Shown: piece after piece, positions 28,494-32,117 of the stretch
How positions within the stretch are numbered: position 1 is the first letter of the stretch
Layout: each line of letters begins with the position of its first letter
Source of the DNA: Escherichia phage BUCT825
DNA: 44,228 bases
Strand: one strand, 5' to 3'
Sequence record: PV040721.1
Translations under genes and position numbers: made by a program
Notes under the pieces: model-generated
What the model was told of the DNA's origin: nothing
Databases searched by the model: none
What the model saw: only the letters and a program-made list of their open reading frames with translations

Positions 28494-29662
28494 ATATGGC
28501 TACAACTCCTTTTAAGGGCGCGAATACTGCGCAATTCTATGTGGCAGAAACTATCCCCGGCGTAACACCAAGTAACCCGGTCTGGTCGCCATTGCGCAAT
28601 ACGGGCGGCGTTCCCGCCATTACCCGCGACACGCTGACCTCCAACGAACTGGACGGCAGCCGTGAAACTACGTCCATCCGCACCGGTAACAAACAGGTTA
28701 GCGGGGAATACGCCATCGAGCTTAGCTCGAAAAGCCAGGACGACTGGTTAGCTGGGGCTTTAGGTTCTACGTGGCAATCCGGTGTTTCTCTGTCCGGTCT
28801 GTCTATTACCGTCGCCCCGGCGGGAAAGACGTTCACCCGTGCTGATGGCAGCTTTATTACCGACGGCGTTGAAGTGGGTGACCTGATTGCGTTTACCGAC
28901 TTAACGGGTGATAACGCCAAACCGTTTATTGTTACTGCAGTAACGGCTACGGTTGTTACTGGTGCGGGCATCCAACACACCCTGACCACCGAGACAAAAA
29001 CTAGTAAGGCTAAAACTGGCGACACGTTGGAAACCGGTAACGCGTGTAAGACGTTCTCTATCCTTACCTGGTACAAAGGCCAGTGCGGCGGTACTGACGC
29101 GTACACGTTAACCAAAGGCGTGGAAGTTTCTGGTTTTACCATCGAACAGGCTGTTAACGCGATGGTAACTGGCAGCTTCCCATTCATCGGTCGCAGTCAG
29201 GAGATTCTCACTACGCCGCCGACCGGTTCCAACTTCTCATCTGTTACTTTTGGTGATGAGCCGTTCTCTTCGGTTGACGTTTCCGTGTTCGACGGCTCTA
29301 CGCCGTTGCGTTGCGACAGTCTGACTATCACCAACGATAACAGCGCGTCCGCGCAGTTCGAACTTGGTAACACTAACGTAGCGTTTGTGGAGCGTAGCCG
29401 TGCAGCTAACACCTTCTCCATCTCCGGTAAGCTGTATGACATGGCGATGATTCAGAAGTTTATCAACGAGCAGCAGGTAGAGATTAACTCCATTCTGGCG
29501 GGGGTAAACGGGGCTATGTCTTTCAGTTTGAAACGTGCAGAGCTTACGGCGGTCACACCTGAGATTGGTGGCCCTGAGTCAATCACTCAGTCTATTGAAG
29601 GCCAGGCCACCGGCAACCAGTACCAGTCGTCTATCGTAATTCAACGTATTAGTTACGCGTAA
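28490..29662 (+). CDS. major tail (tube) protein, 390 aa
   Basis: Large Thr/Ser/Gly-rich protein followed by strong terminator; position before chaperone/TMP block. Confidence 0.55.
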   Translation: MNMATTPFKGANTAQFYVAETIPGVTPSNPVWSPLRNTGGVPAITRDTLTSNELDGSRETTSIRTGNKQVSGEYAIELSSKSQDDWLAGALGSTWQSGVSLSGLSITVAPAGKTFTRADGSFITDGVEVGDLIAFTDLTGDNAKPFIVTAVTATVVTGAGIQHTLTTETKTSKAKTGDTLETGNACKTFSILTWYKGQCGGTDAYTLTKGVEVSGFTIEQAVNAMVTGSFPFIGRSQEILTTPPTGSNFSSVTFGDEPFSSVDVSVFDGSTPLRCDSLTITNDNSASAQFELGNTNVAFVERSRAANTFSISGKLYDMAMIQKFINEQQVEINSILAGVNGAMSFSLKRAELTAVTPEIGGPESITQSIEGQATGNQYQSSIVIQRISYA

Positions 29663-29666
29663 AACT

Positions 29667-29690
29667 AAGGCCCCGAAAGGGGCCTTTTCC
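29667..29690. terminator. Bidirectional intrinsic terminator (AAGGCCCC-GAAA-GGGGCCTT) between convergent tail-tube and kinase genes
   Basis: 8-bp stem flanked by A-run upstream and T-run downstream; near-identical copy at 42199-42222. Confidence 0.7.
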
Positions 29691-30245
29691 CTACAAACCT
29701 AATTTTAAAGCAATGTCTATAACGTTCGATTTAACGTCACCTGGTATGATGTAGGTGTCGTAATCTTTTACACCATCAACGCCATACAGATAGCCACGGC
29801 TGTCCCCTTCAAACGTATAGCCGTCTCTGTGCAAGCGAACAATTCTTACGTCATGCCCAGCGGCGACGATAGGGACCACTTCACTGGCGAATCCACCGTC
29901 GGACACTACAAAAACTTCGTCGCCGTCAGGCAAGTTTTCAGCGAGATATTTACCGAAATAATCGCTGCCGAGGGCCGGTTTAATGAATTGTTCAGAGATA
30001 GCAATCATGAACCGACGGCGCGACAACCCATTAAGGAAACCTTCTGGCTTTTCTTTCCTGGCCCGGTCGTCGTAGCCGTCGAGAAACTCGTGGTAAGCAT
30101 CCGGGCCTAACGCAGCCATAGCGATATTGAACATCGGATTCTTGAAACTGGTAGTTCCTTTCGCAAAGCCCATTTCTACCAGTGCCATAGCAAGCGTGTC
30201 TTTCCCGCAACCCGCAGGGCCATTAAGAATAATTACCTTAGCCAT
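29691..30245 (-). CDS. P-loop nucleotide kinase, T4 Dnk-like (dNMP kinase family), 184 aa
   Basis: Walker A ILNGPAGCGKDT resembles T4 Dnk LSGVKRSGKDT; start overlaps HAD stop by 1 nt. Confidence 0.7.
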   Translation of the reverse strand: MAKVIILNGPAGCGKDTLAMALVEMGFAKGTTSFKNPMFNIAMAALGPDAYHEFLDGYDDRARKEKPEGFLNGLSRRRFMIAISEQFIKPALGSDYFGKYLAENLPDGDEVFVVSDGGFASEVVPIVAAGHDVRIVRLHRDGYTFEGDSRGYLYGVDGVKDYDTYIIPGDVKSNVIDIALKLGL

Positions 30246-30730
30246 TATTTATCGCTCCCATGTGGTTTTAAGTGTGTAGAGTTCCCGTTACAGTCGTATT
30301 CAGTAACCGCGTGAGTGGTTATGCCGAGTTCGCGGAAATGCTTTATTACCGCTGGCGAGTCGTCGAATGCACACAAGATTCTTTCCAGCCCAATAGCACG
30401 CAACACCTCTTCTTTAATTACGATGTCTTTTCTGTTGTCGTGTTTGCTGCGCATGATTAGCTGATAAAATTCGACGCGGTGGCGCTGCAACCACATTCTG
30501 GTTTCTTTTTCTGCATCATCACTACGGCCCGTTAAAATGATAACGGCATAGCGACGATTGAGGGCGTTACACAGTTCTATGTTATCTCTAATTGGTTCAT
30601 CATCTTTGCACGCCATGTTAAAGGGCTTCCACGCCCATGTTTCGTTGTAGTTATCTTTCGGCAGCAGGTGCAAACGATGTGTCCCATCCGCCAATGTCCC
30701 GTCTAAATCGAAAATTACAATATCTTTCAT
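30245..30730 (-). CDS. HAD-family phosphatase resembling the T4 Pnkp 3'-phosphatase domain, 161 aa
   Basis: Motif I IFDLDGTLA; ILTGR; KDIVIKEEV; FDDSP pattern parallels T4 Pnkp IFDVDGTLA / VVVSGR / KDDVVKEEI / IDDR. Confidence 0.7.
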   Translation of the reverse strand: MKDIVIFDLDGTLADGTHRLHLLPKDNYNETWAWKPFNMACKDDEPIRDNIELCNALNRRYAVIILTGRSDDAEKETRMWLQRHRVEFYQLIMRSKHDNRKDIVIKEEVLRAIGLERILCAFDDSPAVIKHFRELGITTHAVTEYDCNGNSTHLKPHGSDK

Positions 30731-31857
30731 CCCAGCATCTCCGGTGAAATAGTTAAACGTGCGACCTCGCCAAATTCGGCGCTATAAGTAATTACATTTG
30801 CACTACGGCCCGACATCCAACCTCCGCGGGAGGCGTAGGCGTCTTTAGCCGCTAAGGTGCGGTGTTGCTCAACAATCATGTTACGGCTTTCTACAATCTT
30901 CTGGTGGTGCAGATGGCCTACGTGGGCGTAGCTGTAAACACTCTCGCCGAACGCTTTACGGAACTTGGCAATCATAACAGGTTCAATAGCGTCGAATCGT
31001 GCTTTATGCCCGTGATGGAAGAACAGCGTCGTTTTGCCGTGTTGCACCATCTTGTAAACATCCGGTGACGTATCGACGAACACACGCGGCTCATTGTCAT
31101 ACAGCGTACTGAACATCTCAGCCAACCAAATCATGCCACTTTCGTCGTGATTCCCTTGCACGATAAGCAAGCGAACATTTTTATGCTTAACCAGCGCCAT
31201 ATCGACAACACGGCGGACCATGCGAATCATGTAGCGGACAAGTTTCTGGTAACGGGTGTCGGCGTCAAGGGCGTGACCGCTTGCAGGTGTAACGGCAACC
31301 AGACTATCGAAGTGCGCGAAGTCGCCCAGCAGGTTAATAACCCCAGTCCCCGCATCCGGTGCTTTCTGGAATGCCGCATCGAACCAACGGGAGAACAGGT
31401 CTTCTGCAATCTTCATATCCCAGTCGTCGCCACTCTCGTCGGCCCAGGCCAGCATACCGAGATGGAAATCAGACACAGTGTAAAGGTTGAGTAGCTTGTC
31501 GTCCCGTTTGGCGCGAACGGCTTTAACAGGAGCAACGGGGGTAATCTCCGACTTCATGCCCTCGATTATGGCTTTCATCAACTCGACCTGACGTTCGGCA
31601 TCGGTGTCGGTCTTAACCCATTGCAGTTTAGTGTTGCCTAACTCATCAACCAGAGACGATGTACCCTTAATCTTGTAGCCGTCCGGCACAAGGTGGCTAA
31701 CGTCACGCCCGTGGCCTACGCCTTTCTTCGCTAGTTTCGCTTTACGGATACGAATAACGCGGTCTGAGATGCCGTATTTACGAGCAATGTCGATATTCTT
31801 CATCCCAGCGTTCAATTCTTCCTGTAACTGTTCGTCGGTTATTTTCTTCTGGGCCAT
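30727..31857 (-). CDS. Calcineurin-like metallophosphoesterase with N-terminal sigma-region-4-like HTH (about 376 aa; longer ORF to 31962 less likely)
   Basis: Motifs DFH, GDFAHFD, VQGNHDE, FHHGH, HVGHLHH; N-terminal NIDIARKYGISDRVIRIRKAKL; ATG 31857 with SD GAGGAA. Confidence 0.7.
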   Translation of the reverse strand: MAQKKITDEQLQEELNAGMKNIDIARKYGISDRVIRIRKAKLAKKGVGHGRDVSHLVPDGYKIKGTSSLVDELGNTKLQWVKTDTDAERQVELMKAIIEGMKSEITPVAPVKAVRAKRDDKLLNLYTVSDFHLGMLAWADESGDDWDMKIAEDLFSRWFDAAFQKAPDAGTGVINLLGDFAHFDSLVAVTPASGHALDADTRYQKLVRYMIRMVRRVVDMALVKHKNVRLLIVQGNHDESGMIWLAEMFSTLYDNEPRVFVDTSPDVYKMVQHGKTTLFFHHGHKARFDAIEPVMIAKFRKAFGESVYSYAHVGHLHHQKIVESRNMIVEQHRTLAAKDAYASRGGWMSGRSANVITYSAEFGEVARLTISPEMLG

Positions 31858-31895
31858 GCCTATTTCCTCGTGTTTAGGATTTGTCTTATAGTAGC

Positions 31896-32087
31896 CTACT
31901 TCTCTTTCACGTTCGAGTTGCAAGCCCAGATTAAAATAAATACCCACGGCAGCAGAACCCAACCAAGAAACAGATTAGCCATGAATATCGCTAACTTCGC
32001 TTTATGGTTACGGAAGTACGCAACCAGGAAAGGCGCGAAATAAGCGAGCAGTGCAAACAGAATTAAGGAAACTGGTAAACTGGACAT
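31896..32087 (-). CDS. small 2-TM membrane protein (about 63 aa), first gene of antisense cassette
   Basis: Hydrophobic segments LPVSLILFALLAYFAPFLVAYF and LFLGWVLLPWVFILIWA; SD GAAGGGG. Confidence 0.5.
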   Translation of the reverse strand: MSSLPVSLILFALLAYFAPFLVAYFRNHKAKLAIFMANLFLGWVLLPWVFILIWACNSNVKEK

Positions 32088-32117
32088 TTTAAACCCCTTC
32101 ATTGTTGGTGTAAGTGA

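Follow-up and report, generated by a model that had tools for sequence, protein, structure and literature searches.

In mammalian PNKP, one polypeptide that also includes an FHA domain, the phosphatase precedes the kinase, the latter being a genuine Pnk-type 5'-OH DNA kinase. The Pnkp of phage T4 also holds both activities in one polypeptide, with the kinase domain N-terminal to the HAD phosphatase domain. Within that phosphatase domain, D165 serves as the nucleophile, D167 as the acid-base and D278 as a Mg ligand, while roles have also been assigned to S211 and K258 (PMC3592404). A second group of relevant enzymes is formed by the deoxynucleoside-monophosphate (dNMP) kinases resembling T4 gp1 (Dnk). 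This T4-Dnk-like group, carried by phages and genomic islands, includes the dNMP kinase PP_1964 of Pseudomonas putida, which supplies thymidylate kinase activity in vivo, and phage T5, the source of the deoxynucleoside-5'-monophosphatase Dmp, also encodes a Dnk-family kinase (PMC10653934). Here, we compare with these systems two overlapping genes of Escherichia phage BUCT825 (sequence record PV040721.1), encoding a HAD phosphatase and a P-loop kinase, which occupy positions 29,691 to 30,730 of the 44,228-nucleotide stretch that was analysed (hereafter, the window). A preliminary description of this DNA had placed the HAD gene first and the kinase gene second with an overlap of one nucleotide, the reverse of the T4 domain order, and had highlighted the motifs IFDLDGTLA, ILTGR and KDIVIKEEV in the HAD protein and GCGKDT in the kinase. 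All of this was borne out by the open reading frame (ORF) list and the minus-strand sequence, while our alignment A2 confirmed the domain order of T4 Pnkp, so that two separate ORFs, HAD first, are found where T4 has one polypeptide with the kinase leading. The proposal that the kinase is Dnk-like rather than Pnk-like likewise agrees with the PHROG, Foldseek and hhalign results given below.

On balance, we lean towards reading the pair as an accessory deoxynucleotide-pool cassette of lytic phages, and not as a split Pnkp. The kinase matched phrog_139 at E 6.6e-44, the same PHROG to which T4 gp1 belongs (E 1.8e-65), and its family is large, with 6594 clusters at 50% identity and 1534 phage records. 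Pfam recognised only the P-loop of the protein, PDB sequence searches returned only AAA+ P-loops, and an NCBIfam search gave merely sub-threshold generic HAD and P-loop matches. An AlphaFold2 model built from an alignment of 38 kinase sequences (A1) reached a mean predicted local distance difference test score (pLDDT) of 95, and when this model was compared with the PDB using Foldseek, 1DEK was ranked first and no polynucleotide kinase occurred among the top 50. The predicted structure has the 1DEK fold, comprising a P-loop core and a helical dNMP-binding domain. Furthermore, hhalign aligned A1 with T4 gp1 over 136 columns (E 3e-5), as against merely 27 P-loop columns with T4 Pnkp.

When the window kinase was compared with the published list of 1DEK contact residues (PMC10653934), it proved to share G13/K14/D15/T16, R68, R132, M135, D175, E181 and R197 (T4 Dnk numbering). 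The module of a Pnk-type 5'-OH polynucleotide kinase (a GxGKS/T P-loop, an Asp after strand 2 and a lid Arg) was not found in this protein. Relatives of the kinase outside the siphophages discussed here adjoin genes for ribonucleotide reductase, thymidylate synthase, dCMP deaminase and nucleoside-2-deoxyribosyltransferase (NDT)-like proteins (DUF4406). As far as computation allows, its assignment to the T4 gp1 family of dNMP kinases is settled.

The HAD protein matched Pfam HAD_PNKP at E 1.5e-19 and phrog_415 at E 5e-66, with PDB sequence matches to Capnocytophaga Pnkp1 (4xrp; E 1e-6) and T4 Pnkp (5uj0/1ltq). By hhalign, its family profile aligned with the entire phosphatase domain of T4 Pnkp (97.5%, E 5e-12). 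Residues D165, D167, R176, S211, R213, D254, K258, D277 and D278 of T4 Pnkp correspond to D8, D10, R19, T67, R69, D102, K106, D123 and D124 of the HAD protein, the T4 catalytic set being fully matched by identical or conservative residues. T5 Dmp, whose activity has been defined experimentally, is also a member of phrog_415 (E 3.6e-57), T4 Pnkp itself being assigned to phrog_505; PHROGs are, however, broad remote-homology clusters, and the shared membership is consequently weak evidence for a shared function.

Immediately behind motif I, the stand-alone HAD family also possesses 15 inserted residues (HRLHLLP...W..FN), an insertion that is present in T5 Dmp and absent from T4 Pnkp. The position after motif I is the usual site, in HAD enzymes, of cap elements that restrict substrate size. 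The protein is, as predicted from these features, a capped-looking phosphomonoesterase with the catalytic core of the Pnkp phosphatase. Since this core fits T4 Pnkp, yet phrog_415 and the insertion are common to T5 Dmp, the catalytic residues do not separate a polynucleotide from a mononucleotide phosphatase. A direct BLASTP comparison with T5 Dmp was weak (E 0.002, N-terminus only), and we accordingly claim only the shared PHROG and the insertion, not orthology. PF26880 gave a weak or faint precomputed match on Webervirus-like HAD homologues, and was not reported for the window HAD.

Outside the catalytic core, the HAD protein ends in a conserved C-terminal tail, Y145 ... S-H157-G158-x-D-K (residues ~145-161; window 30245-30300), which T4 Pnkp does not have. 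This tail, with its SHGxDK element, is retained irrespective of the partner, be it the kinase or the MazZ-like enzyme described below. Some longer homologues (P0219 and P0225; 236-264 aa) are extended at the C-terminus by a CxxC...CxxC motif plus an additional domain of ~60 residues.

Genomic context was counted in the 80 closest HAD loci and the 80 closest kinase loci in IMG/VR, the former being scanned with local hidden Markov models. Every HAD gene was followed on the same strand by a partner, namely a Dnk-like kinase (64 of 80) or a MazZ-like dATP/dGTP pyrophosphohydrolase (PF18909; 16 of 80), and all 16 loci of the latter type derived from KP34-like podophages. A metallophosphoesterase (MPE) gene lay immediately upstream of the HAD gene in 36 of the 64 HAD-kinase loci, as it does in the window. 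Viewed from the kinase side, the HAD gene was upstream in 54 of 80 loci and downstream in none; among the remaining loci, some kinase genes directly followed the gene of a different MPE (phrog_221) and others had no partner. This constant pairing with enzymes on either side of the dNMP pool, the kinase as a consumer and the MazZ-like enzyme as a producer, argues that the HAD protein works on free deoxynucleotides.

The arrangement of the pair varies among phages. In phage T1, it is situated in the early region, 35 kb from the T1 MPE, and is split only by an HNH endonuclease gene. The T1 locus (L103 4948-6534) has this homing endonuclease, gp63, exactly between the HAD gene product gp64 and the kinase gp62, and many Drexlerviridae show gaps of 0.6-2 kb at the HAD/kinase junction; together, these observations suggest repeated insertions into the junction. 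In the SP6-like phage Era103, the order is MPE-HAD-kinase-DNA ligase. A 74 kb contig (L007) presents dCMP deaminase, MPE, a DUF4406/NDT-like gene, the kinase, one more gene and DNA ligase, with another nucleotide hydrolase, the DUF4406/NDT-like protein, in the slot of the HAD gene. In the KP34-like phages PPWS1 and Buco (L013 4001-5007; L014 4001-4953), the HAD gene overlaps the downstream PF18909 gene, just upstream of the RNA polymerase gene, representing a phosphatase/pyrophosphatase pair in phages with ordinary DNA.

If the pair does serve the deoxynucleotide pool, dNMPs would be released from host DNA during infection, plausibly by the upstream MPE acting as a nuclease. With ATP, the kinase would convert these to deoxynucleoside diphosphates (dNDPs), from which host Ndk would then produce the deoxynucleoside triphosphates (dNTPs) required by the phage polymerase. 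The HAD protein would act at the same dNMP node, via an aspartyl-phosphate intermediate on D8, dephosphorylating mononucleotides for which entry into the kinase route is undesirable or not yet possible. Candidate substrates are 5'-dNMPs, by analogy with T5 Dmp, or 3'-phosphorylated nucleotides such as dNp or pdNp, by analogy with the T4 3'-phosphatase. We infer both this substrate range and the kinase reaction (dNMP + ATP to dNDP), the latter from the genomic context of relatives. The sole published comment on the pairing found in our literature searches, the KanT1 paper, reports that the pair recurs after a 'DNA repair exonuclease' gene in Drexlerviridae and independently proposes a role in nucleotide supply (PMC13164509, 2026).

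The two proteins also occur as a natural fusion. P0482, a protein of 403 aa found on three contigs, comprises the HAD domain (residues 3-142), a linker and the kinase (residues 210-394), again with HAD first; on contig L012 (6001-7212) it is followed by an MPE that is 68% identical to that of the window. In P0482, motif II reads TSR instead of TGR, and the activity of the fused phosphatase may be altered or reduced. Among the 150 best of the 6594 representative clusters, one of ten long proteins checked was such a fusion, and the HAD-kinase fusion is thus real but rare.

A more specific proposal, to which we attach little confidence, is that the HAD-Dnk pair and the fusion constitute a bifunctional system acting on mononucleotides, a mononucleotide counterpart of Pnkp. 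It could take the form of a linear salvage route, in which the MPE would free 3'-phosphorylated or 3',5'-bisphosphorylated deoxynucleotides, the HAD protein would take off the 3'-phosphate, leaving the kinase to produce the dNDP. Alternatively, the HAD protein may be a gatekeeper that destroys unwanted dNMPs (methylated or non-canonical) from degraded host DNA while the kinase passes the rest, in which case the corresponding position in other phages would be taken by a DNPH1/NDT-like hydrolase or a MazZ-like pyrophosphatase.

Several observations weigh against a role confined to the nucleotide pool. In sequence, the HAD family is nearer to the phosphatase domain of T4 Pnkp (full-domain match) than to T5 Dmp (E 6e-5, N-terminal 71 columns only), and the T4 phosphatase does act on polynucleotide 3' ends. 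A nuclease-type MPE is a frequent neighbour and a DNA ligase gene lies downstream in Era103 and L007, an arrangement that fits DNA-end processing too. On the kinase side, K37 and R177 of T4 Dnk are not kept (K37 is replaced by F39 and R177 by G118); the family has invariant K35, K64, K89, R137 and R150 instead, and these other basic residues might compensate. P0482 has Ser at both positions equivalent to K101 and D102 (T4 K253 and D254). A 5'-dNMPase that is co-expressed with a dNMP kinase would, moreover, compete with it for substrates unless their specificities differ. Finally, the substrates are deduced, the literature searches having found no biochemical study of the HAD clade or of the kinase clade.

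These points bring forward a serious rival, although one we consider rather improbable: a mixed module in which the HAD protein is a DNA-end 3'-phosphatase that cleans the 3'-phosphate termini left by the MPE or by host nucleases, for the benefit of exonucleases, polymerase and ligase, while the kinase is an ordinary, independent dNMP kinase that recycles the released nucleotides. The retention of the T4 Pnkp phosphatase residues tested, together with the full-domain match, is what such a phosphatase would be expected to display, and the MPE-HAD-kinase order is common to Kagunavirus, Webervirus-like phages, Era103 and the L012 contig, with the DNA ligase gene beside the trio in Era103. A close homologue of the window MPE is named 'Nuclease MPE' in one source, and a related bacterial MPE nuclease is reported to yield mixed 3'-PO4 and 3'-OH ends (PMC7826289). 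However, the nuclease activity of the phage MPE is putative and its AlphaFold model had a mean pLDDT of 43.9, and the pair is located far from any MPE in T1 and many Drexlerviridae. The same HAD protein accompanies a dNTP pyrophosphohydrolase in KP34-like podophages, and its T5 Dmp-like insertion lies at the site where HAD caps usually limit access to small substrates.

The other option raised by the preliminary description, a divergent, split and order-swapped end-healing enzyme, fares less well. Here, the HAD protein would remove a 3'-phosphate or 2',3'-cyclic phosphate and the kinase would phosphorylate 5'-OH ends, so that tRNA or DNA cut by host defence nucleases would be repaired and sealed by a host ligase. 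The Pnkp type of the HAD protein is in keeping with such a function, as are the apparent translational coupling of the two genes, their fusion in P0482, the nuclease-like MPE nearby and the DNA ligase present in some phages; HAD followed by kinase is also the order of mammalian PNKP. Nonetheless, the kinase is of the mononucleotide type, and we judge a split Pnkp unlikely. The interpretation offered by the preliminary description is supported in part. It is very improbable that MPE, HAD and kinase form a counter-defence cassette, degrading or modifying immune signalling nucleotides or offsetting dNTP-depleting defences: although they constitute an accessory cassette in an antisense island within the tail gene block, beside a superinfection-immunity-like gene, and although defence-side work has validated MPP and MPP+HAD gene sets (DefensePredictor, PMC13092281) and extra dNMP kinase activity could in principle counter nucleotide depletion, PADLOC found no match to a known defence or anti-defence protein among the four proteins of the block, in T1 and Era103, among other phages, the genes belong to an ordinary early or DNA-metabolism region, and nothing ties the enzymes to cyclic or signalling nucleotides.

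The features of the locus are collected in Table 1. Across the 3 kb compared (window 29000-32000), Escherichia phage vB_VIPECOTH07 (PQ417132, 44,205 bp; Guernseyvirinae, Kagunavirus) shares 98.6% identity with the window, and the K1G/K1-ind group ~90%. The annotation of PQ417132 already names both genes, the HAD gene as 'polynucleotide kinase' (phrog_415) and the kinase gene as 'deoxynucleoside monophosphate kinase' (phrog_139). Among the 75 annotated coding sequences of this near-identical genome, there is no ligase and no other nucleotide-metabolism gene. A role as a 5-hydroxymethyldeoxyuridine DNA kinase or in hypermodification was considered and ruled out, the genome having no hydroxymethylase or other modification genes.

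Table 1. Features of the antisense gene block and its surroundings in the window.
Feature	Position	Strand	Basis
HAD (DxDxT) phosphatase of Pnkp / T5 Dmp type, 161 aa, without kinase domain	30245..30730	-	Pfam HAD_PNKP, phrog_415, PDB matches, residue mapping, dN/dS
Predicted P-loop kinase of the T4 gp1 (Dnk) deoxynucleoside-monophosphate kinase family, 184 aa	29691..30245	-	phrog_139, fold
TAATG junction, HAD stop/kinase start	30243..30247	-	Direct sequence reading
Binuclear MPE, 376 aa, annotated 'DNA repair exonuclease'	30727..31857	-	phrog_704, MPE motifs
Small hydrophobic membrane-like ORF, 68 aa, first of the antisense block	31896..32102	-	ORF list; phrog_1039 'superinfection immunity protein' in PQ417132
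GC-rich hairpin AAGGCCCC-4 nt-GGGGCCTT, between the convergent tail-tube and kinase genes	29668..29687		Folding energy

The HAD protein contains MKDIVIFDLDGTLADG, and its further motifs, in their fuller form, read FDLDGTLADG, IILTGRSD and RKDIVIKEEVL. The kinase ORF opens with MAKVIILNGPAGCGKDTLA / MAKVIILNGPAGCGKDT and contains the P-loop GPAGCGKDT. At the junction, GATAAATAATGGCT, a single A is common to the TAA stop codon of the HAD gene and the ATG of the kinase gene, and a Shine-Dalgarno-like GGGAG is located ~10 nt 5' of this ATG. The one-base overlap suggests that the two genes are translationally coupled; overlaps of 1-4 nt are also observed in the Era103 and Webervirus-like loci. The start of the HAD gene, in turn, overlaps the stop codon of the MPE gene by 4 nt (ATGA).

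The MPE/HAD/kinase block is antisense and lies between the tail-tube gene and the tail-chaperone genes. The 68-aa ORF, for which no NCBIfam or PADLOC match was found, is probably co-transcribed with the three genes. At the opposite end of the block, the hairpin has a perfect 8-bp stem, with folding energies of -19.4 kcal/mol (z-score -2.05) for the minus strand and -18.0 kcal/mol (z-score -3.74) for the plus strand. It probably serves both convergent genes as a bidirectional terminator, closing the MPE-HAD-kinase transcript; because its T-run is short, it was passed over by the consensus terminator scan. Relative to Kagunavirus relatives that are ~90% identical in DNA, the ratio of nonsynonymous to synonymous substitution rates (dN/dS) was 0.07-0.15 for the kinase, 0.03-0.06 for the HAD protein and 0.02-0.07 for the MPE. 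The HAD and kinase genes are under strong purifying selection, and these low values, combined with the profile matches, mark them as real functional genes and not chance ORFs.

Salmonella phage Jersey, of the sister genus Jerseyvirus (L015 14352-16913), has the same antisense island with the MPE, while an anti-repressor gene and a small ORF replace the HAD and kinase genes. Since Jersey possesses the MPE and neither of the two genes, HAD and kinase were gained or lost together, and the presence of other genes at this location in Jersey points to the island (window 29691-32102) as an exchange point for accessory genes.

The MPE is linked to HAD and kinase in several lineages and is the most conserved gene of the block, with 97-98% amino-acid identity among Kagunavirus and a dN/dS of ~0.02. 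It matched phrog_704 at E 1e-165; its Pfam Metallophos matches were weak and below the curated cut-offs. The motifs DxH (130-132), GD (178-179), GNHD (235-238), H282/H284 and GHxH (314-317) are invariant in alignment A3. The sequences available for its AlphaFold2 model were all at least 96% identical. Regarding its start, the mechanically predicted ORF reaches a TTG at 31962, and the ATG at 31857 has a GAGGAA ribosome-binding site. The N-terminus contains a LuxR/FixJ-like helix-turn-helix (HTH; residues ~8-45), followed by a middle region of ~80 residues without a match, and PDB sequence and profile searches with the MPE returned the HTH only.

Hundreds of GenBank phage genomes already contain the gene pair in annotated form, ~2600 phage records have the HAD gene, and the practical value of the present analysis lies mainly in correcting annotation. 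HAD-only proteins of 160-180 aa are widely labelled 'polynucleotide kinase' or '3'-phosphatase, 5'-polynucleotide kinase', a label propagated from the C-terminal domain of T4 Pnkp. As the protein lacks any kinase domain, the name 'polynucleotide kinase' does not fit it. Thousands of phage genomes carry this or the 'kinase/phosphatase' label, which wrongly implies a capacity for RNA/DNA end healing, where the evidence points to a phosphatase partnered with mononucleotide enzymes. Should the pair prove to be a dedicated module at the dNMP node, it would represent a compact, two-gene means of recycling host DNA for small lytic phages that have no other nucleotide-metabolism genes, and would show the Pnkp phosphatase fold joined to a kinase of another family. 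Given their small size and a high-confidence prediction or clear homology, both proteins should suit biochemical testing. The interest of the pair is perhaps modest, and derives from the systematic mis-annotation and from the possible bifunctional mononucleotide phosphatase/kinase.

In comparison with known systems, the HAD protein has the DxDxT HAD core of the T4 Pnkp phosphatase domain in common, but is a stand-alone protein of 161 aa that has no Pnk kinase domain and bears the insertion after motif I; its partner kinase is of a different family and is encoded downstream, not upstream, and there is no Rnl partner. With T5 Dmp it shares phrog_415, the DLDGT...HR motif and the post-motif-I insertion, whereas Dmp is a protein of 244 aa encoded by a pre-early gene that is not adjacent to T5 dnk, while the window genes overlap. 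The phosphatase-first order corresponds to that of mammalian PNKP, although the window kinase is of the Dnk and not the Pnk type. The kinase belongs to the same PHROG as T4 gp1 Dnk (1DEK/1DEL) and keeps most of the residues that bind ATP and the dNMP phosphate, at a sequence identity of ~17-20% and without the ~55-residue insertion found in the helical domain of the T4 enzyme. PP_1964 of P. putida, likened to it by description through the Dnk group, is a longer protein for which no HAD partner has been reported. Lastly, the pair of KP34-like Autographiviridae has a HAD protein of the same clade (~60% identity), an MPE gene on its 5' side and an overlap with the downstream gene; it differs in that the partner is an all-alpha dNTP pyrophosphohydrolase, not a dNMP kinase, and in that the MPE is of phrog_221.

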